The notes: generated from the letters alone by a model not told the origin. DNA of 64,000 nt from an uncultured Nitrospiraceae bacterium (GCA_964611625.1 CAZTAM010000003.1:311960-375959); one strand, 5' to 3'. Positions 8,134-52,053 are shown, counted from the first letter of the stretch. Numbers and translations: made by a program.

Positions 8134-8502
8134 CTAACCAATGTCAATTGTAACGGATACTTCAGCCTTCGCTCCTGCCTCCCTGATTGCATCTGCAACC
8201 AGTTTCCTGTGACAGTTATTTACATTCTCCCAGCATAAGAGACATATCTTTGCATCGGAATTGGATTTAACCCAGTCTTCTATAGCTGACGACCGCTGTT
8301 TAAGAATAGTCGTCATCTTTTCATTCAGCTTTTCAGAATCCTTTGTCTTATTGTATTCTATCTGGACATCGTAGGTTGGAGTAAACAGCCACAGAATAGT
8401 CATGTCCCTCAGTCGCTGGGGTTTCGTTGTTGATATAGCATAAACAGTATAGCCAAGCGAATCAGAGGGCATATTATCGAAACTTCGTGTTATGAGACGC
8501 AT
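8134..8502 (-). CDS. DUF488-family protein
   Basis: 122 aa with LLCWE...CHR motif as I recall for DUF488; SD GAGGTG 7 nt upstream of ATG; 10-nt gap to the GGDEF gene. Confidence 0.45.
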   Translation of the reverse strand: MRLITRSFDNMPSDSLGYTVYAISTTKPQRLRDMTILWLFTPTYDVQIEYNKTKDSEKLNEKMTTILKQRSSAIEDWVKSNSDAKICLLCWENVNNCHRKLVADAIREAGAKAEVSVTIDIG

Positions 8503-16865: not shown

Positions 16866-19373
16866 TTATAGTTTAGTCGCTACTTTTTCTATAAAAAATG
16901 CCTCAATGATATCTCCAACCTTGATGTCATTGAAATTCTCAATTCCAATACCGCATTCATAACCAGCCTGAACATCACGGACATCATCCTTGAAACGGCG
17001 CAGTGATGAGATCTTGCCTTTATATATCTCAACATTATCCCGTATCAGTCTTACACCTGTAGTTGACCTTGATATTACCCCATCAAGAACGTATGAACCC
17101 GCGATACTCCCGATTTTAGGAATAGTGAATACCTCTCTTACCTCTGCCCTACCCTTAATATGCTCTTTAAATGTAGGTTCAAGGAGTCCCTCCATAGCAG
17201 CTTTGACATCTGCCACAGCATCATAAATGATGTTGTAGAGGCGGATATCAACCTTCTCCTTTTCCGCAAGTGTAACTGCCTTCGGCTCAGGTCTCACATT
17301 AAAACCTGTGATTATGGCATTTGATGCAGCTGCAAGCATTACATCTGTTTCAGTTATACCGCCAACACCTCCATGTATTACCCTGACCTTGACAGCTTCT
17401 GTTCCGAGTCTTTCCAGTGCCTCATTAACCGCCTCGACAGATCCCTGGACATCCCCCTTTATAATTATCTTCAGCTCACGGACAACGCCATCTTTTATCT
17501 GGGTATATAATTCATCGAGTGTTACCTTCTTTGCCTTCTCCAGTCCGGCTACTCTCTGCTTCTGCTGTCTGTCAGTCGCGATTGATCTCGCTATCTGCTC
17601 ATCCTCAACAGCCACAAATGTATCACCTGCCTGAGGAACTCCTGACAACCCGATAACCTCCACAGGTGTTGAAGGATACGCAGCCTGAAGAGGCTTTCCT
17701 ACATCGTTCAGCAGCAGCCTCACCCTTCCATAAAAAGTCCCGCATACAAACGGGTCCCCCTGCGTCAGCATCCCGTTTTGAACTAATACCGTAGCGACAG
17801 GCCCCCTGCCTTTATCAAGCTTAGCCTCGAGAATGACGCCTCTTGCCTTTTTGTCTGGGTTTGCCTTAAGTTCAAGTACCTCTGCCTGCAGCAGGATCAT
17901 TTCAAGCAGGTGGTCAAGCCCGATCTTCTGTTTTGCAGATACTTCTGCAACGATATTCTGCCCACCCCACTCTTCCGGGACTAAACCGTGTTTTGTCAGC
18001 TCCTGCCTGATGCGTTCAGTATTGGCGCCAGGTTTATCTATCTTATTTATTGCAACAATGATTGGCACATTAGCCGCTCTCGCATGATTAATCGCTTCAA
18101 TGGTCTGCGGCATAATACCGTCATCAGCAGCAACGACAAGGATGACAATATCAGTAACCTTGGCCCCGCGAGCCCTCATTGCAGTGAATGCCTCGTGACC
18201 AGGGGTATCAAGAAATACAATCTTTTTCCCATTCGTCTCTACAACATATGCACCTATATGCTGAGTAATGCCGCCGGCTTCCCCCTCAGTAACCCTTGTC
18301 TTTCTTATGGCGTCAAGCAGAGAGGTCTTCCCATGGTCTACATGTCCCATGATTGTTACAACAGGCGCCCGACCCTGCAATGTCTCAGGAACATCCTCGA
18401 CCTCTTCTATATACTCTTCCAATTTCTTCTCGGCAGATACCTCTACCTTTAATCCGAAGGCATCTGCTATAAGTATGGCTGCGTCAACATCAATCGGGTT
18501 GTTAACGGGAACCATCATACCCATCTCGATAAGCCTGGCTATTACCTCATTGGACTTATGGCCTATCAGATCAGAAAACTCCTTTACCGTAATCCCTTCA
18601 TACAGTTTAATAATCTTCTTTCTCGGCTTGGTTATTTCTGCCTGCAGGCTGCCTTTGGTCCTTCTGTCCATAACTGTTGATTTGAACTTCTTGACCTTCT
18701 TCGGAATTACCTTAAAGCTCTTCCACCTTTGAGCAATTACAAGGTCTTCATCAACCTCTCCTGCTATAACCTTTATACCCTTTTTCTTCTGTCCCTTGAC
18801 CTCAGGCTTCTCTTCTGATGGTTTAACATTCACGGATGGCTTAGTTTCTATGACCGGTGTTTCAGTAATCTGCGGCAGTATAATTTCTGCCACAGGCTCT
18901 GGTTTCAAATCAGTCTCCACTGAAGGTTGTTCAACGGTTTCTGCTGCATCAAGTCCTGGGAGTAAATCTTCCTTTAACCCGCCAAGTTCCCTGAACTCCT
19001 TTAATTTTCTAACTACATTTTCTTCAAGTTTCTTTTCTTCGTCCTTTATCTCTACTGCACTGATGTCCCCTGTAATTTCCTCTGTCTTCCCGGCTTGAGG
19101 AGCAGCCTCTGCCTCCTCAGGCAAGGGTGCAACAACCTTTTTCTTTATAAGGATGGTCTTGGGAGTGCCCTTAATTTCCTTGAAAGACTCGCTTGCTTTG
19201 GCGGTACTATCCGCTTTTTTGTTTAACCTGTCACTTACGACTGCAATTGAGCTTTCATCAAGCACCGACATGTGTGTTGTCGCAGCTATGCCGATACTCT
19301 TCAGAATATCAAGAAGTTCCTTGCTCTTCATATTAAATTCACGGGCTAATTCAAAAACCTTTTTACCACTCAT
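16866..19373 (-). CDS. infB: Translation initiation factor IF-2
   Basis: 835 aa, GTPase G-domain ([24 protein letters not shown]). Confidence 0.95.
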
Positions 19374-19428
19374 ATTTATATTTACTCCTTAGTTTACAGT
19401 TATTAATTAAATTCGTCCTTGTAAACTA

Positions 19429-20607
19429 TCAGGCCTCCTCAACATTCTCAGCGATCTCGACATTCTCAGTATTCTCAGCACTTCCGGTCTTCTCAGTTAC
19501 GAGTTCCTGTCCTGCCTCCATCTCTCTGGCCATACTCTCGGAAATCTCCGATTCCTTTTCCTTGGCGCGCTTCTGTTCATATTCAGTTTCACTGATTATA
19601 TCAATTTTCCAATTGGTCAGCTTGGCTGCAAGCCTGACATTCTGACCTTTTTTACCTATTGCAAGTGACAACTGCTGATCTGTTACTACTACAAGAGCTG
19701 ATTTCTCCTCTTCATTTATTCCAACCCTGTCAACTACAGCAGGACTCAGGGCCTCAGCAATAAAAATCCTCGGGTCGTCAGACCATGGAATAATATCTAT
19801 CTTCTCCCCTCTTAATTCTCGAACTACTGCCTGCACCCGGGATCCCTTCATTCCAACACAAGCCCCGACGGGATCTACAGCAGTGTCCTTGGATAAGACG
19901 GATATCTTTGTCCTGTCACCAGGTTCTCTTACAACATCTTTTATCTCCACTATCCTCTCATAAATTTCCGGAACTTCAGTTGCAAATAACTTGCTGACAA
20001 AATTTGGATGACTCCTGGACAGGATAAGCTGGGGGCCTTTTGCAGACGGCTTGACCTCCAGCAGAAATGCCTTGATACGGTCACCTCGTTTAAAGGTCTC
20101 CCTCGGGATCTGTTCTTTTGCCGGCAACAGACCCTCTGTCTTACCAAGATCAACGATATAATTTCTGTTCTCGTGCCCTAAAATTACTCCATGCACCAGC
20201 TCTCCCTGACGGTCAATGAAATCCTTATAGACAGTGTCCCACTCAGCCTCCCTGACCTTCTGAAATATAACCTGCTTTGCAGTCTGCGCAGCAATTCTGC
20301 CAAAATCACCTACCTCAATCAATGCCCCTATCTCATCTCCCAGTTCAGCCTCATTATCCATCAACCTTGCTTCATTAAGAGATATTTCTTCCTTGGGGTT
20401 GGTTACATCCTCAACAATTTTCTTGATTAATATGACCTGAATCTCTCCGGATTTAGGGTCAATCTCTACCTGAATATTATCCGAAACTCCATAGCGTTTT
20501 TTTGCCGCTGATAAAAGAGCAGACTTTACAGCATCAAGAATAATTGCCCCGTTAATACCCTTTTCCCTGCTAATCTGTTCTATTACATTAATAAGTTCTC
20601 TGCTCAT
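19429..20607 (-). CDS. nusA: Transcription termination/antitermination factor NusA
   Basis: S1 and tandem KH domains; SD GGGAGGA upstream of ATG. Confidence 0.95.
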   Translation of the reverse strand: MSRELINVIEQISREKGINGAIILDAVKSALLSAAKKRYGVSDNIQVEIDPKSGEIQVILIKKIVEDVTNPKEEISLNEARLMDNEAELGDEIGALIEVGDFGRIAAQTAKQVIFQKVREAEWDTVYKDFIDRQGELVHGVILGHENRNYIVDLGKTEGLLPAKEQIPRETFKRGDRIKAFLLEVKPSAKGPQLILSRSHPNFVSKLFATEVPEIYERIVEIKDVVREPGDRTKISVLSKDTAVDPVGACVGMKGSRVQAVVRELRGEKIDIIPWSDDPRIFIAEALSPAVVDRVGINEEEKSALVVVTDQQLSLAIGKKGQNVRLAAKLTNWKIDIISETEYEQKRAKEKESEISESMAREMEAGQELVTEKTGSAENTENVEIAENVEEA

Positions 20608-20632
20608 TGAGAATCATTTCCTCCCTTTCAAA

Positions 20633-20662
20633 CAAAAAAAGTGGGCATAACCACCGCCCACT
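20633..20662 (-). terminator. Intrinsic-terminator-like hairpin in the nusA 5' leader (candidate attenuator)
   Basis: Minus strand reads AGTGGGC-ggtggttat-GCCCACT followed by TTTTTTTG, ending about 26 nt upstream of the nusA start and directly before its SD. Confidence 0.4.
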
Positions 20663-20830
20663 CAATCAACTAGAGCTCAACTGTGTATTTTTCTTATAGC
20701 ATAGTAAAATTAAAAAAGCAAGGCAAAGTAAATATCTTTCAAACCCTTCTTAAGACACCTGCATCATCTTGACTTTTAAAATCAATTATTGGAATATGTA
20801 GTGAATTTTCACATATCAGGTTATAAGCAT

Positions 20831-20917
20831 GCCGGGATGGTGAAACAGGTAGACGCACGGGACTCAAAATCCCGCGGGGGCAACCCCATGGGGGTTCGAT
20901 TCCCCCTCCCGGCACCA
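20831..20917 (+). tRNA. tRNA-Leu (anticodon CAA), type II
   Basis: Acceptor GCCGGGA/TCCCGGC, anticodon loop CTCAAAA, long variable arm, T-arm GGGGG-TTCGATT-CCCCC, encoded CCA. Confidence 0.85.
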
Positions 20918-20986
20918 GCATACAGTATGTCGAATCATTTTAGTTTCATGTAAATAAATACTGATAATTTGTGGTAACATATACAT

Positions 20987-21448
20987 ATGATGGTTCTCAA
21001 AATTAAATGGCATCGTCTTATTGCAGATGAAGGCGGTCAAACTTGCCCGCGGTGTGGTTCAACCGAAAAGGAACTTGAGAAGGCAGCGCACACACTGAAT
21101 CAATCACTTGCTCCATTGGGAATAGAAGTAGTTCTTGAAAAGAAAGCTCTTGATCCTGCTACCTTCGCAAGAGATGTTTTAGAATCAAACCGAATCTGGA
21201 TTGATGATAAACCTATTGAAGAGTTATTGGGAGCAGAAGTTGGACAGAGCCGATGCTGTGACGTTTGCGGCGATGCAGAATGCAGAACTCTTGAGATAGA
21301 AAAAAATACTTATGAAACAATTCCATCTGACGTCATTATTAAAGCTGGACTTATTGCAGCCTCAAAAATGATAGCCGCTGAACCAATAGAAACCTGTTGT
21401 GAAGACAATACCTCAAAGAAGATTCCTTCAAGTACTTGCTGTTCATAA
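20987..21448 (+). CDS. Small cysteine-rich protein (DUF2703-like), probable metal-binding
   Basis: 153 aa with CPRC, CCDVCGDAEC and C-terminal TCC...TCCS (three vicinal Cys pairs). Confidence 0.4.
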   Translation: MMVLKIKWHRLIADEGGQTCPRCGSTEKELEKAAHTLNQSLAPLGIEVVLEKKALDPATFARDVLESNRIWIDDKPIEELLGAEVGQSRCCDVCGDAECRTLEIEKNTYETIPSDVIIKAGLIAASKMIAAEPIETCCEDNTSKKIPSSTCCS

Positions 21449-21601
21449 ACATTTAATAGTTCCATAGAATATAACAATGGATGGCCGGCATGGAGGCAGA
21501 CGGTACGGAGTACGCGCTGTCATCCCATCGGCTCTTAAGAAGCTGGAATAGTGCGGTTTTGTTACTGCATATTCGAAAGAAAACGCAGCATTTCTGCCTG
21601 G

Positions 21602-24600
21602 TTATTCAGACCCCCTTTTCCGGCTGAACATACCTCGCAATGATAACGTCTGAGACTGGTAATAGAGCACCGGCACAACCACCAGTGTCAGCAGTGTGGC
21701 TGCAGCCAGGCCGAATATGACTGCTACCGCCATTGGCCCCCACCACTGAGCTGATTCGCCTCCGATTTCCAGGGATAAATTTCGGAAGTCGAAACTCACC
21801 CCGACTGCCATGGGAAGAAGGCCCAGGATTGTTGTCACTGCCGTGAGCATGACCGGGCGAAAGCGCACGAGACCAGCATGAATGAGCGCCTCACGCAGTT
21901 CCATTCCCTTATTTCTTAACTGATTGATATAGTCAATGAGTACGATGGCATTGTTTACGACCACACCTGCCAGGGATATGACTCCGATGCCGGTCATGAT
22001 AATGCCGAAAGGTGTTGCGGTAACCAGCAGGCCCATGAAAACTCCGGTTAGCGACAGGATAACGGATGTCATGACTATCAGCATTTGTAGAACTGAATTG
22101 AACTGGGTAAGGAGGACAAGTGCTATTAGAAAGACCGCAACGATGAAGGCCTTCCCAAGAAAAGCAGATGCCTTCTGCTGCTCTTCCTGTTCGCCGGAGA
22201 AATTGATCTTATAACCGGCGGGCAGCTCGATTCCTGACAACCGGGTCTGTACATCTTTCAATACCTCGTTGCTGTTTCGGCCGAAAGTGTTGGCGGAGAT
22301 GGTCACCACCCTATTCTGATCAATGTGGCGGATGGCTCCGAAACCAGTCTCCATCTCTATCCTGGCAACTGTGGAGAGTGGAACGGGGGCTCCTGTCCTC
22401 GTCGGAATAAGGAGGCTGCCGATATCACTAAGGCTCTGCCGTCGGGGTTCAGGCAGGCGGGCAATGATGTCATATTCGTCCTTGCCTTCTCGGTAAACTC
22501 CAAGCTTGCTTCCGCTGATTGCAGCCTTGACTGTGCTGGAAATCTCCGCGGTGGAGAGCCCCAGCAGGGTTGCTTTATTCCGGTCAACCAGCACCCTTAT
22601 CTCAGGTTTGGCCTTTGAGAAATCGTCCTTGAGATCAACCAGTCCCGGAACATCTTTTACCAGGGATTTGGACTTCTCTACCAGCGACTCAAGAGTTTCG
22701 ACCACTTCTCCGCTGATCTCTATGTTTACGGGCGGACCTGTGGGTGGACCCGTCTCTTCTTTTTCCACCTTGATCTCTGCCCCGGCCATGGAGGCAACCG
22801 CCTCCCGTATGCGTCCCAGCACGATATTGGAATTCTCTCTGCGCTTCTCCCGCTCGACAAAGTCGAGGGAAATTTTACTAAAATTAGACTGAGCACCGGC
22901 ACTGCTGCCGGCTTCGCCACTCGCGCCAACTCCGACCTCAGCAATAATGAATTTAAGATCCTTTTCCGGACTGGCAGCCTTCTCCACAATCATAGCCAAC
23001 TGGTTGGATGTCTCCAGGTTAGCCCCTTCCGGTGCCTTGATTTCGACGAATGCCCTGTTAGGCTCCGTATCCGGGAAGAGCTCTACCCCATGACCCAACA
23101 GACTGTATCCGGCAATGATAAGAAGCAGCAATGTAAGCGCCCCGCCGACTACCAGTCCCCGATGATCAAGGGATTTCCCCAGAATCCAGCGATACATACC
23201 TAATATGCGCATTTGCTCATCAACGCCGCCTGTGCTGCTGCGGCTGACACGCATAAATGAAGCACAGAGTACCGGGTTGATGACCAGGGCTACCAGCAGT
23301 GATGCCGTCAGAACTATGATAAGGGTCATGGGAAGATATTTCATGAACTCGCCCATCACCCCAGGCCAGAACAACATGGGACCGAATGCGCACAGAGTGG
23401 TCAGTGTCGAGGATATAACCGGCCAGCCGACCTCGCTTACCGCCCTGCGTGCAGCGCTGATCCGGTCATCACCTTCCTGCATGTGCCGGTATATGTTCTC
23501 AACGATTACGATGGCGTTGTCTACCAGCATCCCAAGTGCCAGGATCAGGCTGAACAATACTACCATGTTTAGGGTGATTCCCATCGCCTGAATGACGGCA
23601 AAGGACAGGAGCATGGAAAATGGGATCGCCGATGCGACAAATATGGCGCTGTTCAATCCCAGAAAAAAGAAGAGTACCGCAACCACAAGAATCAGGCCGG
23701 TTAGGATGTTATTCTCCAGATCAGAGACCATGGTCCGGATGTCCCTGGATTGGTTCAGCGTTACGGACAGCTCGACCCCCGCCGGAACCTGCTTCCGGGC
23801 CTCTTCAAGCAGCGCAAATACATGGTCGGCGACTGCGATGATGTTCTCGCCAGTCCGCTTCTTCACCGCAAGTGTCACGCTGCTTCTACCGTTGAGCCTG
23901 GCATGGCTTGTGCGGTCTTCAAAAGTGTCGCGGACCACTGCAACATCCTTGAGGTAGATCGGGCGGCCGTCACGGCTTGCCACCATCAGGGTGTCCACCT
24001 CGTCCGGGCTGGTGAACTCCCCGGGTATGCGGAGGAGGTATTCTCCCCGCCCTATATCGAGGCTGCCGCCTGGGATGTTGACATTTTCGCGTTGAACGGA
24101 CTGAAGTATCTCGGCAAAAGAGAGTCTGTAGGCGAACATTCTGTCAGGGTTGAATTCCACCCTGATTTCCCTCTCCCGTCCACCCGCAAGATTCACCTCC
24201 AGAACGCCTGGAATCGCTTCAATCCTGTCCTCCAGTTCTTCCGCCACACGTTTGAGAACCGTTTCCTCAACATCACCGGAAACAGCAAGCATCAGAATCG
24301 GAAACTCCGAAAGGTTGACCTCGAAGATAACAGGATCGTTTTCCAGATCTTCGGGGAGATCCCCTTTGGCCTGATCAACTTTGTCGCGCACCCACTGTAT
24401 GGCGTTGTCGATGTCTACCCTGGGAGTAAATTCAATAGTAATCACTGAGGAACCCTCGGCACTGACTGATCTGATTTCTTCCACGTCCCTGAGGCCCTTT
24501 AGCTTGCGTTCTATTGGCAGGGTAATGAGGGTTTCAATGTCCGATGGCGCAGCCCCCTCATAGGAGGTGACCACCATAACATACGGTATTGTGATGTCAG

Positions 24601-24712
24601 GGGACGATTCACGCGGAAGTGTAATGTAGCTGTATGCCCCAATTACAATAAAAAAAACCATCAGGGCGAAGATTGTGCTGCGATGGCCAATGGCTGCATC
24701 AGATATCAGCAT
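21602..24712 (-). CDS. RND efflux transporter permease (AcrB/CzcA superfamily)
   Basis: About 1040 aa, 12-TM RND architecture; track start is TTG at 24733, internal ATG at 24712 gives an AcrB-like N-terminus. Confidence 0.85.
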   Translation of the reverse strand: MLISDAAIGHRSTIFALMVFFIVIGAYSYITLPRESSPDITIPYVMVVTSYEGAAPSDIETLITLPIERKLKGLRDVEEIRSVSAEGSSVITIEFTPRVDIDNAIQWVRDKVDQAKGDLPEDLENDPVIFEVNLSEFPILMLAVSGDVEETVLKRVAEELEDRIEAIPGVLEVNLAGGREREIRVEFNPDRMFAYRLSFAEILQSVQRENVNIPGGSLDIGRGEYLLRIPGEFTSPDEVDTLMVASRDGRPIYLKDVAVVRDTFEDRTSHARLNGRSSVTLAVKKRTGENIIAVADHVFALLEEARKQVPAGVELSVTLNQSRDIRTMVSDLENNILTGLILVVAVLFFFLGLNSAIFVASAIPFSMLLSFAVIQAMGITLNMVVLFSLILALGMLVDNAIVIVENIYRHMQEGDDRISAARRAVSEVGWPVISSTLTTLCAFGPMLFWPGVMGEFMKYLPMTLIIVLTASLLVALVINPVLCASFMRVSRSSTGGVDEQMRILGMYRWILGKSLDHRGLVVGGALTLLLLIIAGYSLLGHGVELFPDTEPNRAFVEIKAPEGANLETSNQLAMIVEKAASPEKDLKFIIAEVGVGASGEAGSSAGAQSNFSKISLDFVEREKRRENSNIVLGRIREAVASMAGAEIKVEKEETGPPTGPPVNIEISGEVVETLESLVEKSKSLVKDVPGLVDLKDDFSKAKPEIRVLVDRNKATLLGLSTAEISSTVKAAISGSKLGVYREGKDEYDIIARLPEPRRQSLSDIGSLLIPTRTGAPVPLSTVARIEMETGFGAIRHIDQNRVVTISANTFGRNSNEVLKDVQTRLSGIELPAGYKINFSGEQEEQQKASAFLGKAFIVAVFLIALVLLTQFNSVLQMLIVMTSVILSLTGVFMGLLVTATPFGIIMTGIGVISLAGVVVNNAIVLIDYINQLRNKGMELREALIHAGLVRFRPVMLTAVTTILGLLPMAVGVSFDFRNLSLEIGGESAQWWGPMAVAVIFGLAAATLLTLVVVPVLYYQSQTLSLRGMFSRKRGSE

Positions 24713-25796
24713 TTCCGGTTCCCTCTTCAGCAACTGCGGACCCGTCGCTAACCAGGTGCTGACCTTTTACAATGAGCCGCTCACCAGGTGTGAGCCCTTC
24801 TTCTATCACTGCCATATTGCCGATAATAGGCCCGACTTTTACTTGACGAAGATGTGCTGTGCCGCCCTGTTCGACATAGACGACTTTGATCCCATCGCGT
24901 TCCACCAGGGAATAAAGTGGGACTGCGATTACCTGAGAGAGCTTACGGCTCAGGAAAGCGACACGAATGATCATCCCAGGGCGCAGTGATCCCGCCTTGT
25001 TGTCGACAGCGATCTTGGCCTGGTAAGTCCTGGTTGCCGGATCTGCCTGGTAGGATAGATGGATGATCTCACCTGCGAATCCCTGACCTGCCCCTCCTTC
25101 TACCGGAGCGGCAAAGACCCGGGCTTTTTCTCCAACAGTCAGTTTCATTATGTCCTTCTCAGGTACATCTACCAGTGCCCGCAGCCGGTTGACCTGCATA
25201 ACAACCGCTGCGGCGTTCCCTTCGGCAATATACTCGCCCCGGTCTATCAACAGGCGATCGAGAATACCGTCCACAGGGCTGCGAATTGTGCTTTTGTCAA
25301 GGGCTACCCTTGAAAGCCTCAACTGGGCCTGAGCCTGTTCAAATGCCTTAGTGGAATCTTCGAATTCCTGCTGGCTGATAAGATTGCTCTGAACAAGGGA
25401 GAGGCGGCGTTCCATGCGCTTTTTCTGCAGTTCGTACTCGACCTCATCACGTGCCAACTCCGCTTCAAGTCTTTCCGGATCGATGCGCAGGATGGTATCT
25501 CCCTTTTTCACCCTGTCTCCTTCTTTGGGGCCAATCCATTTCACAGGACCGGACATTTCAGCTGCCAGGGTCAGATCCTCCCAGGCTTCCAGAGTTCCGG
25601 GGAGAGTCAGGTTCACCGAGAGATTTTGCTTTACGACAGTGCTGAGGGAAACGTTGGTGACCTTTATCCGATGCGGATCTGGCAATACTACTTTGGTTTC
25701 ATCACTGCCGGAATTATCGCATCCGCTGAAAAGAAGTACCACCAGAAGAAGCGGAAGGCAGGCAGGGTGATTCAGGAGAATATTCTTTAGCTTCAT
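24699..25796 (-). CDS. RND efflux periplasmic adaptor (membrane fusion protein), lipoprotein
   Basis: Lipobox LLFSGC; HlyD-like lipoyl and beta-barrel regions; ATG at 25796. Confidence 0.8.
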   Translation of the reverse strand: MKLKNILLNHPACLPLLLVVLLFSGCDNSGSDETKVVLPDPHRIKVTNVSLSTVVKQNLSVNLTLPGTLEAWEDLTLAAEMSGPVKWIGPKEGDRVKKGDTILRIDPERLEAELARDEVEYELQKKRMERRLSLVQSNLISQQEFEDSTKAFEQAQAQLRLSRVALDKSTIRSPVDGILDRLLIDRGEYIAEGNAAAVVMQVNRLRALVDVPEKDIMKLTVGEKARVFAAPVEGGAGQGFAGEIIHLSYQADPATRTYQAKIAVDNKAGSLRPGMIIRVAFLSRKLSQVIAVPLYSLVERDGIKVVYVEQGGTAHLRQVKVGPIIGNMAVIEEGLTPGERLIVKGQHLVSDGSAVAEEGTGNADI

Positions 25797-25862
25797 CACT
25801 GGTCTCCGGATTTTGACATTTATACTCCACGTAAGTAATTAAAGTTGCCTGCAAGAAAAACC

Positions 25863-25902
25863 TTGACATTAAACGTTATAATGCTAATATAGTGCTATAC
25901 TA
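25863..25902 (+). promoter_or_regulatory. Putative sigma70 promoter of the MarR gene with overlapping inverted repeat
   Basis: -35 TTGACA (25863-25868), 16-nt spacer, -10 TAATAT (25885-25890); palindrome TATAG-TG-CTATA (25888-25899) overlaps -10 and predicted TSS. Confidence 0.3.
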
Positions 25903-25938
25903 ACTATTAGTCAAGCAATTATTTCAAAGAAAACGGAC

Positions 25939-26376
25939 ATGATTGATTATGATTTCGAAAATAGCGTAAGTTTCTGGGTGGGACTGACTTCACACATCTT
26001 CGAGACAGCTCTTAATAATGAGTTGGTTGGTACAGGCATCACGCTGCGGCAGGTACAGGTGCTTGCATGTCTTGCCCTGTATGGAGACCTGGCACAAAAT
26101 GAGTTGGCTGCTCAATTGCGAATAGAGCCCCCGACACTCGTGCGCATCCTGGACAGGATGGAACGGGACGGCTGGATAGAGCGGTGCGAATCACCACTGG
26201 ACCGAAGAAAAAAAATCATTCGTCCTACCGAAAGGGTCACCACCAGATGGAATAAAATCGTTGAATGTGGTGAGCGCATGGAAAAGCGGGCGACTACGGG
26301 TCTGAGCCAGACCCAATTGAATAACCTTAAGGATACGCTATCAGCAATACGCCGCAATCTTGAACCTAAAACATAA
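25939..26376 (+). CDS. MarR-family transcriptional regulator
   Basis: 145 aa winged-HTH with typical MarR layout; divergent from the efflux operon. Confidence 0.75.
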   Translation: MIDYDFENSVSFWVGLTSHIFETALNNELVGTGITLRQVQVLACLALYGDLAQNELAAQLRIEPPTLVRILDRMERDGWIERCESPLDRRKKIIRPTERVTTRWNKIVECGERMEKRATTGLSQTQLNNLKDTLSAIRRNLEPKT

Positions 26377-26746
26377 CGATTTTTTTTGAGACAAATCGGG
26401 CTTTGTCAATTGCTGTCTTCATCCGGTATTTATTAATCCGCTGGCAGCTAATGATTATAATCTTAACTTATAAGCCACAATGAATCCTTGCATATTTTAC
26501 GATTAGCTGTTATAGTATGCGATAAGATTGATAGTATGGATTGGCATGTCCTATACCCACCATGTAATGAGAGCCTTCCAGTCTATCTTGCCTGATATGA
26601 GCATAATGAATATTGCCGACTTCGTAAGATACCCATTTGCGCGACTATCATTTCGCACCGCAATTTATACATTCGCCAGCTTATGGATGTTGGGAATAAT
26701 ATCAGTATCCCCTGCTGTGTCAGGACAGTTTAAAGGAGCGACAGAT

Positions 26747-27184
26747 ATGAGTATTTCAGAAGGCAGACAGGTATCAATTGAATACACGTTAAAACTGGAA
26801 GACAAGACTATAGTTGACAGTAATGTTGGCGCAGCCCCGCTTACATATGTCCATGGCGCACGCCAGATCATACCAGGTCTTGAAAATTCGTTAACCGGCA
26901 TGAAGGTCGGAGACAAGAAGGAAGTTACTGTTAAGCCTGAAGACGGATACGGCCTGGTTGATACTAAGGCGCTTGTTGAGGTGGATAAGGAACAGATTCC
27001 AGCAGACTCTGCTAAGATAGGTTCGCAGCTTCAGGGCCGGGATAATGATGGAAATGTCTTTACTGCACGCGTTACCGAGATAAAAGATAATAAGGTAGTG
27101 CTCGATTTCAACCATCCTTTAGCAGGCAAGACACTTTACTTTGAAGTCAGGGTGCTTAACATACTGGAAGTTCCACAGCCATAA
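26747..27184 (+). CDS. FKBP-type peptidyl-prolyl cis-trans isomerase (SlyD/FkpB-like)
   Basis: SlyD-like N-terminus (VSIEYT...PLTYVHG...IPGLE); internal ATG at 26747 has SD AAAGGAG, track start 26528 adds an unlikely 73-aa extension. Confidence 0.7.
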   Translation: MSISEGRQVSIEYTLKLEDKTIVDSNVGAAPLTYVHGARQIIPGLENSLTGMKVGDKKEVTVKPEDGYGLVDTKALVEVDKEQIPADSAKIGSQLQGRDNDGNVFTARVTEIKDNKVVLDFNHPLAGKTLYFEVRVLNILEVPQP

Positions 27185-27261
27185 GAGGTTGTGGTGACAA
27201 AGTCCGCTATTAAGTAATAGCGGCAATAGCTTTTTAACAATCTTACAAGGAGAGTGTAGTC

Positions 27262-27615
27262 ATGTCAGTCAAGCTTTATGTAGGCAATCTGTCTTATGAG
27301 GTCACAGAATCAGAATTAAACGACCTTTTCACACCATTTGGTACTGTGGAAAGCGCCCGGATTATCACTGACAAGTTTACAGGGAACTCCAAAGGATTCG
27401 GTTTTGTTGAGATGTCCAACCGTGAAGAAGCAAATCAGGCTATGAACGAACTCAATGGAAAAACGATTAATAACCGCGCAGTGGTTGTAAATGAGGCAAG
27501 GCCCCAGACCAAGTCACCACGCGGGGGTGGAGGCGGAGGGTTTGGAAACCGTTCATCACGCGGAGGAGGCAGCGGCAGTAAAAGCGGCGGCAGACCTCAG
27601 AGAAGAAGTTATTAG
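27262..27615 (+). CDS. RRM-type RNA-binding protein with Gly/Arg-rich tail
   Basis: RNP-2 LYVGNL and RNP-1 KGFGFVEM; C-terminal GGGGGGFGNRSSRGGGSG; SD AAGGAGAG. Confidence 0.85.
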   Translation: MSVKLYVGNLSYEVTESELNDLFTPFGTVESARIITDKFTGNSKGFGFVEMSNREEANQAMNELNGKTINNRAVVVNEARPQTKSPRGGGGGGFGNRSSRGGGSGSKSGGRPQRRSY

Positions 27616-27640
27616 AGTCTTGTCCATATAAGAATAAAAA

Positions 27641-27673
27641 AGCCCACTGGAGTAATCCAGTGGGCTTTTTCTT
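27641..27673. terminator. Bidirectional Rho-independent terminator
   Basis: AAAAAA-AGCCCACTGG-agtaat-CCAGTGGGCT-TTTTTCTTT between convergent RRM and lipoprotein genes. Confidence 0.65.
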
Positions 27674-27690
27674 TAACAAATATACTATTT

Positions 27691-27882
27691 TTACTTGTGT
27701 TCGCCTGCTGGCTGCTGTGCCTCGCCGCCTTCTGCTGGTGCCTGCTCTGCTGGCGCCTGTTCTGCCGGAGCTGGTGCTTCTGCCGGTGGAGGAGGTGCTG
27801 GTTGTTCCTTTTTCTGACATGCAGTGAAACCGAGTGTACCTGCCATAGCCAGCGCTAAAAGCATAATTAGACCTTTCTTCAT
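27691..27882 (-). CDS. Small lipoprotein with Pro/Ala/Glu-rich repeats
   Basis: Signal peptide plus lipobox (LGFTAC), then repeated APAEQ units; strong SD AAGGAGGTG. Confidence 0.5.
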   Translation of the reverse strand: MKKGLIMLLALAMAGTLGFTACQKKEQPAPPPPAEAPAPAEQAPAEQAPAEGGEAQQPAGEHK

Positions 27883-28114
27883 TTATTCATTCACCTCCTT
27901 TCTTCTCGAAAATTTATCGTTCGTAGTCATATTCTCTAATTTTATTAAACATTATTTAAATATTGCTAAAGGATTACACAATCATCGGGTTCCACTCTGT
28001 GCATGACAGATATGAAATTACAGTGGTAAGTTTTCTTAGTGGGAAACATAACATCTTAACCGTAGACCAAATGTCCAATTGCACATTAAACATGAACAAA
28101 TAACAATTGTCAAG

Positions 28115-31100
28115 CTAATATTGTATACTCTTTCCATAGCGAATGAAAATAAGTTTAAACCCGGCTATTTCAGAACCCATGCACTTCCGTACGGCATTCA
28201 TGTAGATATCAACCGATACAGAATATTCTTTAAACTTAGACTCTATATCTCCTTCACTGACCCTGTCTGTCTTGTAGTCCGCTGCATATAACTTGTCTTT
28301 AGACCTGTATATGATGTCAATTACTCCTTCCATTACCGCCCCATTCCACGGCATCGCAAAAGGGACCTCTTTTCCCAATATCTCTGCCGTCTTTAACTCT
28401 TCGTAGGCAGGTGAAGCAGAGAATGTCTCAAACAAGTCCTCAAGCTCAGACAGGAGGGAATTATCAGGCATGAACTTGCGGCATGCGTCTTTTACTGCAT
28501 TCTTTAACATGGCTGAATTAAGAGAGAAATCCCAGTTAGAAAGAATATAATGTGCAATATTTCCTATGAGAACAGACTTATCTCCAGCTTTAAGCCTATC
28601 ATCTGCATATTTCCGCTTTTTACCCGATTTCTCAACAAGTTGCTTTTCTACCGATGAAGGTGTTACGAAAAAAGGCATATCCAGTATAGCCCTGTATTCT
28701 TTATCTCTTTTTTCCCAAACACCTGAGAGCATTTCAATCTTCTCCGGTGAGATCCTGTCATCACTCATCCTTACCTCTCTTGCAGGAGGTGCTGGAATTG
28801 TGCATGCGTTATACCCAATCACAGTCTGCTTTAATATCCCCTTCTCGATCCTGATTTCGTCTGCTGATCGTTCTCCTACTGAGTTTCCTAATGCACCTTT
28901 CAGCATTGAAAGAAAACTGTCCTTATACGTTCTTTTTCCGAGTACTCCTGACAATATAAGACATTCCTTAGCCCTTGTCATGGCTACATACAATAGCCTC
29001 TTTAGCTCCTCTTTTTCAACAAGACGTTCCTTATCATGCAGCATGACAGAAGTAAAATCAGATATACCGGCTACTCTGATTCCAGACATACCGCCGGACC
29101 AGTCATAGCTCACAGCCGCAGGATCACTTCCCCTGTTTGGGATACTGTGAATTCCTCCCACTATAACAACCGGAAACTCAAGACCTTTGGACCTGTGAAT
29201 GCTTAATATTCGCACCGCATCAACACCCTCTTCCGAAAGAAGACTCTCCCCCTCTTTCTCCCTGGAGGCGACTCGCTTCTCCAGCAGCACTGTTAAACCC
29301 TTAAGTGTAAGACTGGATTTATCACTCATTATATTTGCAATCCTGTATATCTTCTGAAGGTTGGCCACAGACTGCTCACCGTGATATGAAGAGGCCGCAA
29401 GTTCGAGGACAGGTGAATTGTCAAATATATAATGAAGGGCGTCAGGAACAGGCAATATAGAAACATTGATGTTAAGACGCTTCAAAAGATCATATAATGC
29501 CGGGATAAGTCTCTTAAACTCATCCATGCGTTGTTCTCCAAATACTGAATTGTCTAATTTTTCCAGCCCCTTATTCAGCCTGTCTTCCTCAATACGGAAA
29601 TCATCCAGAGACAACCTGTATAATTCATAAAGCTCCCTGTCAGATATTCCACCCAGCGGAGACCGCAGGACACCAGCCATGGCTGTCCTGTCGAGTGGAT
29701 TGTCAAGGACACGAAGAAGATTCACAAAGTCTATGACCTCCTGAGTACCGTAAAAGTGCCGGTCACCTTCAACTATATAAGGTATCCTCAGTCGTTTAAA
29801 TACATCCAGATACTCATGCACCTGGGTCAATTTCGGCAGCAATATGGCAATGTGCCCCGGAGAAACAGGCATCTCACCGCCGTCTGAACCTGATGATATA
29901 ATCTCTTTTCCTATCATCTCCTCTTTTAAGAATTTCCCGATTGCCTGGGCTTCAAGTTCTGCAGTCCCGGTTGAATCACTATCTTCATCATTGCCTGAAT
30001 CAACCAGCCTCATTTCAACCCTCTGAAGCGGTTTTACAGCCTCACGTCCGGGACACTCTTTGATGTCAACATATTCAGGCTGAATATAATCACGCTCCCG
30101 TATAATCTTCCTGCAAACGCAATTGACCACATTAATTATTCCGTTATGGCTTCTGAAATTGGTAGACAGATTTGAGATAACTCCTCCCTGCGACACTATC
30201 ATATCAACCACCCTGTGATATGCCTCAATATCCGCTCCCCGGAATGCATAAATAGACTGCTTTGGATCTCCGACAATGAATATCTTGCCAGGCGCGAGTT
30301 TTATTTCACGCCAGTCTTGCTCAAACCTGTCCTGTTCCTCTGCCAGATACAGGATAATTTCATACTGGAGCGGATCAGTATCCTGAAACTCATCAATCAG
30401 GATTGACTTAAAGCTATTCTTTAGGTTATTGCGTATACTCCTTCGTTTATTAAGGATATTACAGCTGAAGGAAAGCAGCCCGTCAAATGACATTTTTCCT
30501 GATAAAACAAAACTTTTTCTGCACGAGACTGCAAAAGGCAGAATAAGTTTCGATAGTTTTCTTATAAACTTTTCATCTGCGACAGATAGTTCCTGTGTCG
30601 TATAAACAATACGAAAGGCCTCATTATAATCATGCTCTTTCCAATCAGCAGGATATCTTGCCGGAACGTTATCTTCAAAGGGAGTGACATCAGCACCCGA
30701 AATTACGTTATCCAGCAGACCGATTGATTTCCTTAGTAGATCGTGCATCTTGACCTTCCTGAAGTCCTCGTACGTACTCAATATATCACAGGCCTTTTTC
30801 TTCTCTTCCGAAAGCCACTCGTGCATCTTGCCGACAGGCTGCTGAAACATTCTTCCACTCGAAAGAACCGTCTCCCGATGGTCTTCCTTGTCATTCTGAA
30901 CCTGATTCAGGATCTCCTGACCAGACCCCGTTTTATTCTCTATGGATGCAAGCGGAATTGTCTCCCTGCACAGGTATTTCGCCAGTACTTTCACGCTATC
31001 AACGGATACTCTGCGAAGGACGTCTTTCCATTCCTCCCTGCACCTGGAATCAGATGATAATTCCTTATCAAGCCACTCCTCCCATTCATCCTCAAAATGA

Positions 31101-35676: not shown

Positions 35677-37959
35677 ATGGCATCAAAGCTTACTGAGTTT
35701 TCAGTAGAAAGACCTAAGACTACTGTCATTACAGTTATAATATTGACGCTTATATTTCTATTACAATTTCCAAAGATCTCGATTGATACTGACCCTAAGA
35801 ACATGCTGCCGGAGACATCTCCTGTCCGTGTATATAACGATCAGATTGAATCTCTCTTTTCACTTCACAAAGACATGATAGTCCTCGGAATAGAAAATCC
35901 ACAGGGCCTGTTCAACCGGGCAACGCTTGAACGTGTAGCTCGTTTTACGGACGAGATTATGAGGCTTAAAGGTGTTGTCATACCTGATATTATGAGTCTT
36001 ACGACCGTTGATAATATCCTGTCTGAAAATGGACAATTGACAGTACGCCCTGTCATGGATCATATCCCTCAATCCAGGGAAGAGTTGGAAAAACTTCAGA
36101 ACGAGATATTTGACAATCCCATACTGATTGGAAGGCTTGTCTCGCAAGACAGGACAACTACTGCCATTTATGTACCTCTCGAAGAGGGGGCGAATGCGAA
36201 GGTGATTGCCGACGGTATAAGGGAAATAGTCAGCAAAGAAAAAGGAGATGAGCGCTATTATGTCGCGGGTGATCCAGTTGCAAGGGACACGTTTGGCAGC
36301 ACAATGTTCCTTCAGATGAGGATATTCTCGCCAATCGCAGGAATTATCATGATGATTACCCTTTTTATAATGTTCCGCAACATCACACTTGTCGCGGCCA
36401 TGATGTCTGTAGCATTTCTAAGCATCATATGGAGTATGGGACTTTTAATAGGATTGGGCTTTCCTGTGCACATCATGAGTTCCATGATACCTGTATTTCT
36501 AATGGCAATTGCAACTGACAGTGTACATATATTCAATGAATTTTATTTCAGGCTGAAGGAGGTACGTAATAAAAAGCAGGCAATCCTTGAGACGCTTACA
36601 GTTGTTGGCCCTGCAGTCAGATATACTGCTTTAGCAACCGCAGCAGGTTTCGGCGTGCTTGTGTTCATGCATATTATACCGGTAAAGGTATTCGGTGTAT
36701 TTGTGGCATTCGGGACTATAGTAATAAGATTAATGAGCTTCAGCTTCATACCGGCATTAATGATGCTGACCAGTGATAAGAAATTGCTGCGCATGGCTGA
36801 TCGCGAAGATGCAGAGTCAGGCAGCGGAAATGCATGGCTCAGAAAGCTCGGGGATACCGGTTACCACAAATCCGGCATTGTTATCATTGTCGGTGTTGTT
36901 ATGCTTGCTTTGGCAATAGTCGGATTGACCCAGATACGTGTAAACAACAACATGGTCTCATGGTTCAAGAAAAGCAGTGACATAAGACAGGCAGACACGG
37001 CAATGAATGGAAAGCTTGCAGGTACTGCCTCTGCGTACATAGTTGCCGAGTCTCCTGATATTGATGCCATGAAAGATTATCATAATCTCAAGGCAATTGA
37101 GGAACTGCAAAAAGAGCTGGGTAAACTTCCTGTTGTTGGCAAGACGACATCCATTGCAGATATAGTCAAGAGGGTAAACAAGGTGCTGCACGGAAATGAT
37201 CCTGAATATGACACTATTCCGCAGTCATCTGAAGAGATTGCACAATATCTGTTTCTGTTCGGCATGTCGGCAAAACCGCGTGATCTTGAGAACGTAGTAA
37301 CTGCAGACTATGATAAGGCGAATATTTTGCTTCAGCTAAAGACGTGGGACGCAATTGCCATGCGGGAAGTACTGAAGAAAATCGGGGAATTTCAGTCATC
37401 TAATCCGGGTGTCAGCCTGCAGTTTAAACCCGCCGGAATATCATATTTTAATATGGTATGGAATGATGAGGTCCTGTTTGATATGATTAAGGGATTCATC
37501 CTGGCGCTGATCGTAGTATTTATTATATTAGTGATTAATTTCAGATCAGTAAAGTGGGGGCTTATAAGCTTCGTTCCCCTGCTCTTTACTATTTTAATCA
37601 TTTATGGGTTTGTCGGCTTTATTGGCAAGGACTTTGATATGCCTATTTCAGTGCTGTCCGCCATGTCGCTCGGTATGGCTGTCGATTTTGCAATTCACTT
37701 CATCAGGCGGTTTCAGCAGAAGTATGCAGAAGAGAGGGATCAGGAGAAGGCGATAATATGGACTGCTGCACGGCCTGGCAAGGGGATAATCAGAAATGCC
37801 ATCCTCTTTGCCTCTGCTTTTTCAGTAATGATATTTGCCCCTCTGACCCCGTATGTAACAGTTGGAATCTTTATCGCAGGGATGATGGTGATAAGTTCCA
37901 TTTTGACGCTTCTCTTTCTGCCGGCAATTATCCGGGTTGCGGGCAGGCGGGTGGTGTGA
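35677..37959 (+). CDS. MMPL/RND-superfamily exporter
   Basis: 760 aa, two repeats of 6 TM helices each with a periplasmic loop; SD GGAGA. Confidence 0.7.
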   Translation: MASKLTEFSVERPKTTVITVIILTLIFLLQFPKISIDTDPKNMLPETSPVRVYNDQIESLFSLHKDMIVLGIENPQGLFNRATLERVARFTDEIMRLKGVVIPDIMSLTTVDNILSENGQLTVRPVMDHIPQSREELEKLQNEIFDNPILIGRLVSQDRTTTAIYVPLEEGANAKVIADGIREIVSKEKGDERYYVAGDPVARDTFGSTMFLQMRIFSPIAGIIMMITLFIMFRNITLVAAMMSVAFLSIIWSMGLLIGLGFPVHIMSSMIPVFLMAIATDSVHIFNEFYFRLKEVRNKKQAILETLTVVGPAVRYTALATAAGFGVLVFMHIIPVKVFGVFVAFGTIVIRLMSFSFIPALMMLTSDKKLLRMADREDAESGSGNAWLRKLGDTGYHKSGIVIIVGVVMLALAIVGLTQIRVNNNMVSWFKKSSDIRQADTAMNGKLAGTASAYIVAESPDIDAMKDYHNLKAIEELQKELGKLPVVGKTTSIADIVKRVNKVLHGNDPEYDTIPQSSEEIAQYLFLFGMSAKPRDLENVVTADYDKANILLQLKTWDAIAMREVLKKIGEFQSSNPGVSLQFKPAGISYFNMVWNDEVLFDMIKGFILALIVVFIILVINFRSVKWGLISFVPLLFTILIIYGFVGFIGKDFDMPISVLSAMSLGMAVDFAIHFIRRFQQKYAEERDQEKAIIWTAARPGKGIIRNAILFASAFSVMIFAPLTPYVTVGIFIAGMMVISSILTLLFLPAIIRVAGRRVV

Positions 37960-38017
37960 GGCTGGTGATAGCCAGTGGTAAATAGTCCGGGGGCAGACTA
38001 TAGAAAAGGGGGATGTT

Positions 38018-38812
38018 ATGAAGATATGTATAAAATTACTTATACTGTTTTTTCTGGCTGTCAGCATTAATCCGTCGTTAGTTCATGCAGAAGATGCATC
38101 TGATATTGTCAGCAAATCTCAGGATGCCTTTTTCTCTCAGGGCAGGGATATGAAGGCAAGGGTAAAAATGACCCTGTTGTCCAAATCAGGTCAGCAGAGA
38201 TTGAGAGAACTTACAATGCTGCGCAGGAACGGCACCGGGGGCGAGCAGAAATACTTCATGTATTTTCACAACCCGGGTGATGTTCGCGGCACATCATTCA
38301 TGGTCTATAAGTATCCTGGAAAAGATGACGACAGGTGGATATTCATTCCGTCCATAAAACTCGTTAACCGTATCGCGGCCAAAGACAGCAGATCAAGCTT
38401 TGTCGGATCAGACTTTACATATGAGGATGTGTCAGGACGGGATATCGAAGCTGACAGTCACAAATACCTCAGAGAAGAACCGCTTCAGGGAAAACAGTGT
38501 CATGTCATTGAGAGTACCCCGAAGAACCCTGCTGAATATACCAGAAAGATATCATGGGTTGACAAGGCAACGTATCTGCCGCTTAAAGATGAGTATTATG
38601 ATGTCCAGGGATCACTCTATAAGGTATTTACAGCAGATAAGGTTGATATCGTCGAAGGACTACCCACAATAACAAAAAGGAGCATGGCCAATATAAAGAA
38701 CGGCCATAAGACAGAAGTAGTATTCGATAATGTCTCTTACAATGTCGGTATTACTGATGATGTTTTCTCAGAGAGGTATCTGAGGAAACCATCAGATAAG
38801 TGGATAAAATAG
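38018..38812 (+). CDS. LolA-like outer-membrane lipoprotein-sorting family protein
   Basis: Signal peptide then a ~240-aa beta-rich domain; resembles the family commonly adjacent to MMPL exporters; SD AAAGGGGGA. Confidence 0.55.
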   Translation: MKICIKLLILFFLAVSINPSLVHAEDASDIVSKSQDAFFSQGRDMKARVKMTLLSKSGQQRLRELTMLRRNGTGGEQKYFMYFHNPGDVRGTSFMVYKYPGKDDDRWIFIPSIKLVNRIAAKDSRSSFVGSDFTYEDVSGRDIEADSHKYLREEPLQGKQCHVIESTPKNPAEYTRKISWVDKATYLPLKDEYYDVQGSLYKVFTADKVDIVEGLPTITKRSMANIKNGHKTEVVFDNVSYNVGITDDVFSERYLRKPSDKWIK

Positions 38813-38817
38813 GCCGA

Positions 38818-52052: not shown

Positions 52053-52053
52053 T

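Follow-up and report, generated by a model that had tools for sequence, protein, structure and literature searches.

The 64,000-nucleotide stretch of DNA analysed here (the window) belongs to an uncultured Nitrospiraceae bacterium (GCA_964611625.1, CAZTAM010000003.1:311960-375959) and carries, beside a gene for tRNA-Leu(CAA), a permease of the resistance-nodulation-division (RND) superfamily, its periplasmic adaptor (a membrane fusion protein, MFP), a MarR-family regulator and a protein with a DUF2703 domain. These four genes occupy an insert, 20918-26478, that is best understood, with a probability of about 0.85, as an integrase-less genomic islet lying directly 3' of the tRNA in a genome of the Nitrospirota. 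The islet combines the DUF2703 gene with a GC-rich marR/mfp-rnd module from a gene pool of the Desulfobacterota type, and the products of the module are modelled as an efflux pump that works with an outer-membrane factor (OMF) encoded away from it. Acquisition of a block containing the pump genes had been proposed in an earlier reading of the sequence alone (the sequence-only reading); base composition and the empty sites of related genomes support the proposal, with corrected boundaries and content. The coordinates of the features are collected in Table 1.

The insertion is observed directly when the window is compared with related genomes, which were located through the contigs encoding the closest AddA homologues and are referred to as L094 (GCA_040960315.1), L097 (GCA_020846775.1) and L098 (Logan SRR24928196). 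In L094 and L098 the genes follow the order FMN-reductase (FMN_red), AddB, AddA, RRM, FKBP, tRNA-Leu(CAA), nusA, infB, rbfA, truB, S15 and pnp. This is the backbone of the window, where infB lies further to the left and genes for an RRM protein and AddA/AddB-like proteins further to the right, minus DUF2703, rnd, mfp and marR. In these empty sites the tRNA is separated from a conserved block upstream of FKBP by 13 nt (L094) and about 62 nt (L098). The aligned 3' part of the tRNA is identical through its terminal CCA in the window and in all three relatives, divergence sets in at the next base, and the block upstream of FKBP (AATGAATCCTTGCATATTT...) resumes in the window at 26479. With homology to the empty site present up to 20917 and again from 26479, the insert is defined as the 5561 bp in between. 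In L097 the backbone is unchanged, and the space between tRNA-Leu and FKBP (L097 10564-16011) is filled by about 5.2 kb of unrelated cargo of host-like GC content, which encodes a 128-aa protein, DUF5989, a carbamoyltransferase, a GDSL lipase and a Fer4 protein, and contains no integrase. Since a different cargo is held in the same tRNA-Leu/FKBP gap, the site is a recurrent insertion point.

The identity of window proteins to those of the three relatives is 94% for NusA, 84-88% for IF2 and 65-71% for AddA, and by host-gene identity L094 is closest, then L097 and then L098. The empty sites therefore bracket the lineage of the window, which makes gain of the block far more parsimonious than its repeated precise loss. 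More widely, NusA has its affinity with metagenome-assembled genomes (MAGs) of the Nitrospirota (85% to isolate nzgw272, then 62-67%), and the AddA relatives at 65-71% include one named 'MAG: Nitrospirae bacterium', after which identity drops to 40-50% within about 30 matches. More distant Nitrospirota (L011-L016, NusA 62-67%) conserve the nusA-infB-rbfA-truB-pnp side and are wholly different on the other side, and are uninformative for the site. The sequence-only reading had the block starting a few hundred bp from tRNA-Leu, but the foreign segment actually begins at the base that follows the tRNA, and two of its genes, the low-GC DUF2703 gene and marR, were not named there. The block is not syntenic in relatives, two of which are empty and one of which holds other cargo, and this favours acquisition.

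Table 1. The insert, its genes and its flanks (positions counted from the first base of the window)
Feature	Position	Strand	Remarks
nusA	19429..20607	-	Conserved left flank, host backbone; Pfam domains called in identical Logan loci
tRNA-Leu(CAA)	20831..20917	+	ARAGORN; Rfam tRNA 53.9 bits; last base marks the insertion site's left edge
Insert (genomic islet), 5561 bp	20918..26478	none	Homology to empty site L094 stops at 20917 and restarts at 26479
DUF2703 gene	20987..21448	+	PF10865 133.7 bits; Cys-rich; low-GC part of insert
RND permease (rnd), 1036 aa	21602..24712	-	ACR_tran 728 bits; identical protein P0001 called with the same start
Periplasmic adaptor (MFP) lipoprotein (mfp)	24699..25796	-	TIGR01730 230 bits against 94.9; 365 aa as called in L007
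Divergent control region marR-mfp	25800..25938	none	139-bp spacer; two overlapping promoter-like sites
MarR-family regulator (marR), 145 aa	25939..26376	+	PF01047 56.1 bits; part of the transferred module
FKBP upstream region and FKBP gene	26479..27184	+	Right flank, host backbone; aligns with L094, L098 and L097 from 26479; FKBP_C 63 bits

The foreign character of the insert is equally apparent from its base composition. The average GC content of the window is about 43%, and the 1-kb bins at 22001-25000 reach 0.522-0.548, against a maximum of 0.481 outside the block; at a resolution of 300 nt the rise spans from about 21550 to about 25750. No other stretch of 5561 bp in the window is as rich in GC as the insert (0.504, against 0.434 elsewhere). 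As the background for GC content at third codon positions (GC3), 41 of the 45 non-overlapping open reading frames (ORFs) were taken, namely those outside the insert, which have a mean of 0.439 and a standard deviation of 0.032. Against these 41 genes the permease (0.605, z=+5.2) and the adaptor (0.542, z=+3.2) stand far out, marR is milder (0.500, z=+1.9) and the DUF2703 gene deviates in the opposite direction (0.279, z=-5.0); the flanking nusA and FKBP have values of 0.430 and 0.434. Synonymous codon usage gives a chi-square per codon of 0.237 and 0.278 for the two pump genes, with a maximum of 0.179 among background genes of more than 300 aa. Amino-acid composition is not the cause of the rise in GC, because the excess sits at third codon positions and because the other RND-superfamily membrane protein of the window, MMPL (35677-37959), has a host-like GC3 of 0.461. 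The permease and adaptor are thus GC-richer than their flanks, as the sequence-only reading had it, and the strong difference of the block from the rest of the window in both GC content and codon usage again favours acquisition.

The phylogenetic affinity of the permease lies outside the Nitrospirota. More than 100 homologues share at least 68% identity with it, and the named ones are mostly from Desulfuromonadales, Desulfocapsaceae or Desulfoarculaceae and include entries under Desulfuromonas, Desulfuromonadales, Geoalkalibacter, Malonomonas and Desulfuromusa. The closest tier (79-83%) is made up of a Desulfuromonadales MAG, Desulfocapsaceae/Desulfocapsa, Desulfoarculaceae and one other Nitrospirae MAG. 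In a neighbour-joining tree a subclade of nine permeases, supported by 100/100 bootstrap replicates, is nested within a Desulfuromonadales-dominated family, and its seven non-Nitrospirota members group together in 87/100 replicates. Moreover, the GC3 of the module, at 0.58-0.65, matches that of the neighbouring genes in the Desulfuromonadales locus L008 and in locus L092. The genome of L097 (GCA_020846775.1) carries an OMF-less marR divergent from mfp-rnd at another locus (L090), between an Mrp antiporter cluster and amylase/GlgE genes, where the GC3 of the module is 0.56-0.62 and that of the host-like amylase genes beside it is 0.39-0.45. The transferable unit consists of three genes, marR, mfp and rnd. 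As no sampled homologue exceeds 83% in protein identity, the direct donor is unsampled. The suggestion of the sequence-only reading that any acquisition is old holds in part: the nearest homologue is only 83% identical, but the insertion took place after the lineage had separated from its closest sampled relative, and the GC3 is still donor-like. As a separate observation, the Mrp/Mnh antiporter cluster beside the module in L090 (1182-8169) is also high in GC3 (0.46-0.58, against 0.39-0.45 for amylase/GlgE), which suggests a larger foreign segment in that genome.

The DUF2703 gene is a cargo separate from the pump, since its GC content deviates in the opposite direction (0.386 for the segment 20918-21469) and since the gene is not present in other loci of the pump module. 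Its homologues are scattered over a Nitrospiraceae MAG, Bathyarchaeia, Omnitrophica, Betaproteobacteria and Flavobacterium. The insert is hence a composite of two compositionally opposite segments of different origin. The nearest DUF2703 homologue (73%; L183 6001-6915, L185 366-1280) adjoins the 3' end of tRNA-Ser TGA, and in L183 a Gp49/HTH toxin-antitoxin pair lies beside it. Variable sites adjoining tRNAs may repeatedly take up DUF2703 as a small cargo.

How the segment came to be inserted is less apparent, as the usual machinery is missing. The ORF and Pfam scans detect no ORF of integrase size or type in the 5561-bp insert. A second copy of the 25-mer at the 3' end of the tRNA is found neither exactly nor with up to three mismatches, only the tRNA itself being matched, and local alignment of the last 45 nt of the tRNA to the insert ends, the internal junctions and the L094, L097 and L098 spacers is no better than with shuffled sequences (p 0.26-0.98). 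The sequence-only reading, which had found neither an integrase nor an att-like repeat of the tRNA 3' end, is borne out by these searches. Beyond the rnd stop and the marR stop the DNA of the window, L090, L092, L008 and L182 is unalignable, so that no mobile-element ends are shared among them, and an Rfam scan of 20000-28200 returned only the tRNA above threshold, with three other matches under their gathering scores. A 16-nt imperfect direct repeat (21570-21585 and 25920-25935) that brackets rnd-mfp was considered and rejected as chance, because it matches at only 14 of 16 positions, lies inside the control region and leaves beyond it marR, which by homology still belongs to the module.

The insert resembles tRNA-linked islands and islets in that it adjoins the 3' end of a tRNA, is present or absent among relatives at that gene, has a deviant, foreign composition (GC3 z from -5.0 to +5.2) and lies at a site that holds alternative cargo. 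It differs from them in lacking an integrase, mobility genes and direct repeats that stem from the tRNA 3' end, in its size of only 5.6 kb and in being a low-GC/high-GC mosaic. Insertion may have occurred by illegitimate capture, or by an exchange in which homologous recombination used the identical tRNA on one side and the conserved block upstream of FKBP on the other.

The permease is a clear member of the RND superfamily, with a score of 728.1 bits to PF00873 (ACR_tran) against a cut-off of 28 over residues 11-1025. Within the superfamily its best-scoring NCBIfam models are those of the hydrophobe/amphiphile efflux (HAE1) type, although no curated cut-off is reached: NF033617 gives 637 bits of the 1250 required, NF000282 451 of 1250, TIGR00915 406 of 940 and the MdtB/MuxB equivalog 418 of 1584. 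The CusA/CzcA model of the heavy-metal efflux (HME) type, TIGR00914, gives 489 of 701. Among solved structures the closest are MdtB (367 bits), MexK (358) and TriC (344), with ZneA at 274 and AcrB at 255. The sequence-only reading had posed the choice between HAE1 and HME; HAE1-type profiles and structures do score higher, but with no curated cut-off reached and a non-canonical proton relay the permease is filed in neither, and by its sequence is best described as HAE1-like, closest to MdtB, MexK and TriC, and not HME. It is part of a large, structurally uncharacterised RND subfamily. The public names of the members of this subfamily alternate between 'CzcA family' and 'multidrug efflux'.

In AcrB the canonical proton relay is formed by D407 and D408 in transmembrane helix (TM) 4, K940 in TM10 and R971 in TM11 (PMC8277102), and in MexK by D402, D403 and R932 (PMC13450314). 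The permease departs from this arrangement, keeping D398 with N399 for the second Asp and N920 for the Lys/Arg, so that the equivalents of AcrB D408 and K940 are both Asn. TM4 (residues 394-406) reads GMLVDNAIVIVEN and TM10 (residues 915-928) reads AGVVVNNAIVLIDY, and an Arg-bearing TM11 motif, VRFRPVMLTA, is retained, its equivalence to AcrB R971 being judged by eye. All three motifs are invariant in 64 close homologues, and GMLVDNAIVIVEN and AGVVVNNAIVLIDY are nearly unchanged in 80 metagenome loci (L100-L179) down to 44% identity. Because it is kept across homologues, the Asp-Asn/Asn relay is a feature of the subfamily and not a lesion of this copy.

The adaptor is encoded upstream of the permease, and its stop codon overlaps the rnd start by 14 nt. 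A GGAG sequence lies 7 nt ahead of the mfp ATG at 25796, and the translation contains a lipobox, LFSGC. The protein belongs to the RND periplasmic adaptors by its TIGR01730 match and by the RLS motif at its hairpin tip, and its nearest solved structure is MexJ (93.5 bits). The RLS motif, RxxxLxxxxxxS (R131-L135-S142), is invariant in six adaptors, both OMF-linked and OMF-less; in MacA, AcrA and MexA this motif is the TolC-binding interface (PMC3391258). The host is a diderm, as the window also encodes BamA, Skp, LpxD, FabZ, LpxA and LpxI (Pfam scans).

No gene or remnant of an outer-membrane efflux protein (OEP) or TolC is found in the 64-kb window, including the space between marR and mfp, by tblastn and phmmer with cognate OEPs or by Pfam ORF scans, in agreement with the sequence-only reading, which had seen no outer-membrane channel gene with the pump. 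The locus is thus not a tripartite operon with a linked PF02321 OEP, as are several of its homologues: in L092 a MarR gene is divergent from OEP-MFP-RND, and L008 and L180 have the arrangement TetR-OEP-MFP-RND, with the OEP directly upstream of the adaptor. L182 has MFP-RND alone. When JGI metagenome loci with at least 62% identity and at least 4 kb of upstream flank were counted (28 loci), an OEP was directly upstream of the adaptor in 14 and none was detectable within the flanks of the other 14. An OMF gene is therefore optional in the operon of this pump family, and its absence here is unremarkable. Since the adaptor keeps the RLS motif, an unlinked OMF is the likeliest docking partner, and judging from these sequence features the adaptor-permease pair most likely docks onto an OMF encoded elsewhere.

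Such an arrangement is known from other RND pumps. MdtABC and TriABC recruit an OMF encoded elsewhere (TolC and OpmH, respectively), and MdtB and TriC are the first and third structure matches to the permease; unlike the module described here, which has one permease and one adaptor, these systems have two permease or two adaptor subunits. In MexJK of P. aeruginosa a repressor gene (MexL) adjoins the operon. MexK and MexJ are best or near-best structure matches to the two proteins (358 and 93.5 bits), and in MexJK, too, no OMF gene is linked. The mexJK operon lacks an outer-membrane protein gene and its products assemble with the unlinked OprM or OpmH (PMC13450314). The similarity is nonetheless distant, far under family cut-offs, the relay of MexK is canonical whereas that of the permease is D398, N399 and N920, and the regulator here is of the MarR type and not of the TetR type.

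The regulator is a winged-helix protein of the MarR family (PF01047, 56.1 bits against 24.6), which reaches none of the named MarR equivalogs, the best being HpaR at 46 bits against a cut-off of 121. It is 79% identical to the pump-side MarR of L090 and 72% identical to that of L092, both of 145 aa and divergent. In the spacer between marR and mfp a promoter scan predicts a pump promoter on the minus strand (-35 TTGACT at 25914-25909, -10 TATATT at 25891-25886; 10/12 matches) and a marR promoter on the plus strand (25863-25890; 10/12 matches). A palindrome, ACTAA-TAG-TTAGT (25899-25911), shares bases with the -35 box of the pump promoter. L090 and L092, which are also linked to MarR, conserve both elements, the first gene in L092 being the OEP. 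In the MexR-mexAB-oprM and EmrR-emrAB systems a MarR-family repressor is encoded divergently from or beside the efflux operon. The present locus is like these in its 145-aa MarR gene divergent from the pump operon, its overlapping promoters and the palindrome over the -35 box, and unlike them in the low identity of its MarR to the named equivalogs. MarR would repress both promoters until a ligand releases it.

The working of the system can be envisaged as follows. A MarR dimer would bind the ACTAA-N3-TTAGT palindrome over the -35 box and repress the pump operon, and a small-molecule ligand would release MarR and allow the operon to be expressed. The lipoprotein adaptor and a trimer of the RND permease would then assemble in the inner membrane, and the tip of the adaptor hairpin, with its RLS motif, would dock onto an OMF encoded elsewhere in the genome. 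The assembled pump would draw on the ion gradient to expel an organic substrate of hydrophobic or amphiphilic character; the MarR and TetR regulators found with the module point to organic rather than metal substrates.

Several other explanations have to be weighed against this one. Presence and absence alone cannot tell gain from loss, so the block might be native and ancestral at its site, having been deleted by the relatives, with its high GC content arising from protein composition or from expression-linked codon bias. RND proteins are indeed rich in Ala, Gly, Leu and Val, and the GC content at first codon positions is somewhat raised (0.59-0.66), but the excess is at third positions, the MMPL gene of the same window is host-like, and the nearest homologues are in Desulfobacterota and not in Nitrospirota. 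Moreover, with empty sites bracketing the window lineage and other cargo in L097, several independent precise deletions would be required, and the module lies at another locus in GCA_020846775.1; a native origin is accordingly very improbable. The junctions might instead be a chimera of assembly or binning, in which a Desulfobacterota contig was joined to a Nitrospirota contig at a common tRNA sequence. The window does derive from a metagenome-assembled genome, and the Logan contigs with this nusA or the insert (L001-L007), as well as L010, the closest genome-contig match, all terminate inside or just before tRNA-Leu. Yet contig L007, from an independent assembly (run SRR14787579), equals window 20889-29334 with 0 mismatches and runs from the tRNA 3' end through DUF2703, rnd, mfp, marR, FKBP and RRM into AddA. 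Both insert junctions fall inside this stretch, so that L007 links the GC-rich module physically to the host genes on its right side. Contig L004 corresponds to window 18207-20918 and overlaps L007 by exactly 30 nt inside the tRNA (20889-20918). As the aligned 3' part of the tRNA is identical among related genomes, it would fork de Bruijn graphs, and the recurrent contig ends are likely due to such forking and not to a defect of the window. Strain-level polymorphism was considered as a cause of the breaks and rejected in favour of graph forking at a tRNA sequence common to related genomes. A chimera is scarcely credible on this evidence.

With the islet accepted as an insertion, the alternatives that remain concern its contents and its route. 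The permease would be a heavy-metal exporter of the HME type, like CzcA or CusA, and not a pump for organic compounds, if weight were given to TIGR00914 as its second-best NCBIfam match, to the name 'CzcA family' carried by several JGI homologues, to the single carboxylate of its TM4 Asp-Asn, as in CusA, and to the adjoining Cys-rich DUF2703 gene. This is unlikely, as the 489 bits fall below the cut-off of 701, the HAE1-type model (637 bits) and MdtB, MexK and TriC all score higher (367, 358 and 344 against 274 for ZneA), CusA is outside the best 60 matches, the regulators linked to the module are MarR or TetR and not metal-sensing types, and DUF2703 is compositionally separate and not in other module loci. 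That the pump pair is a decaying remnant, non-functional in its host after the OMF gene was lost on transfer, might be argued from the OEP that lies directly upstream of the adaptor in the close homologues L008, L180 and L092 and is found nowhere in the window. The rnd and mfp ORFs are, however, full length with all clade-conserved residues kept, the RLS docking motif is intact and the promoter and putative operator are conserved; the OMF-less form is also kept in a second Nitrospirota genome and in L182, and half of the family loci with enough flank (14/28) have no detectable OEP. Decay is thus improbable. Finally, the base after the CCA of tRNA-Leu(CAA) could be a dedicated cassette-capture site in this Nitrospirota clade that depends either on a recombinase whose gene lies elsewhere or on exchange via the tRNA and the FKBP block, with a pump subfamily whose relay couples unlike that of AcrB. 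Such a site would explain why four related genomes have an equally sharp left boundary with different contents behind it, spacers of 13 nt and about 62 nt in two of them and, in the other two, unrelated cargos of about 5 kb that lack an integrase; this reading carries only a small share of the probability.

Some points weigh against the preferred explanation of a transferred efflux islet with an unlinked OMF. Besides the missing integrase and att repeat, neither a transposase nor conserved module ends were found in support of mobility. The third-codon-position identity of rnd to sampled homologues is only 0.41-0.50 at a protein identity of 79-83%, so that none of these is a recent donor, and donor and date are not fixed. 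The two Nitrospirota permeases are basal in their subclade with a sister relation in only 51/100 replicates, a tree that would be compatible both with one entry into the Nitrospirota followed by relocation and with two entries. The third-position identity of the two Nitrospirota rnd genes (0.50), lower than that of host genes in the same or similar genome pairs (0.63 for nusA, 0.65 for infB), hints at separate acquisitions. With Asn at the AcrB D408 and K940 positions, the coupling chemistry may differ from the AcrB model, the search for an OMF was confined to the 64-kb window, and the substrate is not predictable from sequence.

A number of features of the window and its relatives lie apart from the islet. 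In the Nitrospirae MAG nzgw272, rimP sits between tRNA-Leu and nusA (L010 219-677); tblastn detects no rimP in the window, where the gap between nusA and the tRNA is only 223 bp (20608-20830), and the gap of about 200 bp in L094, L097 and L098 is likewise too short for it. At 35677-40056 the MMPL/sterol-sensing-domain RND-superfamily protein is clustered with a LolA-like/DUF1329 protein and a 418-aa protein with no Pfam match. L094, L096 and L098 keep this host-native cluster together with its neighbours, and in them its third gene has weak Wzi/DUF1302 matches; it resembles a system for exporting lipids or lipoproteins and has no connection with the insert. Composition deviates a second time, though less strongly, in the ABC-2 type transporter cluster at 50463-53028 (two ABC2_membrane_6 genes and an ATPase; GC3 0.51-0.54 against a background of 0.44), the first gene of which is also deviant in codon usage (0.296). 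No Pfam match was obtained for three ORFs in the regions 8134-8502 and 118-2631, one of 122 aa, whose codon usage is strongly deviant (0.382), and two larger ones of 277 and 519 aa.

The islet represents a clean, nucleotide-resolved case of an efflux module transferred across phyla into the Nitrospirota from a gene pool of the Desulfobacterota type, backed by empty-site controls and by alternative cargo at the same tRNA-adjacent site. It is a well-documented but ordinary instance of horizontal gene transfer, in which both the islet and the pump belong to known kinds. Two aspects are of more specialist interest: insertion has recurred at one sharply defined point with no recombinase in evidence, and the pump subfamily has a non-canonical relay. 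The pump clade also provides a warning for annotation, as it is labelled both 'CzcA family' and 'multidrug' in public databases and fits neither curated definition, and its clade-wide Asp-Asn/Asn relay offers a concrete target for studies of RND energy coupling. More generally, RND modules travel as regulator, adaptor and permease and readily shed or gain the OMF gene, so that a missing OMF gene is not unusual.

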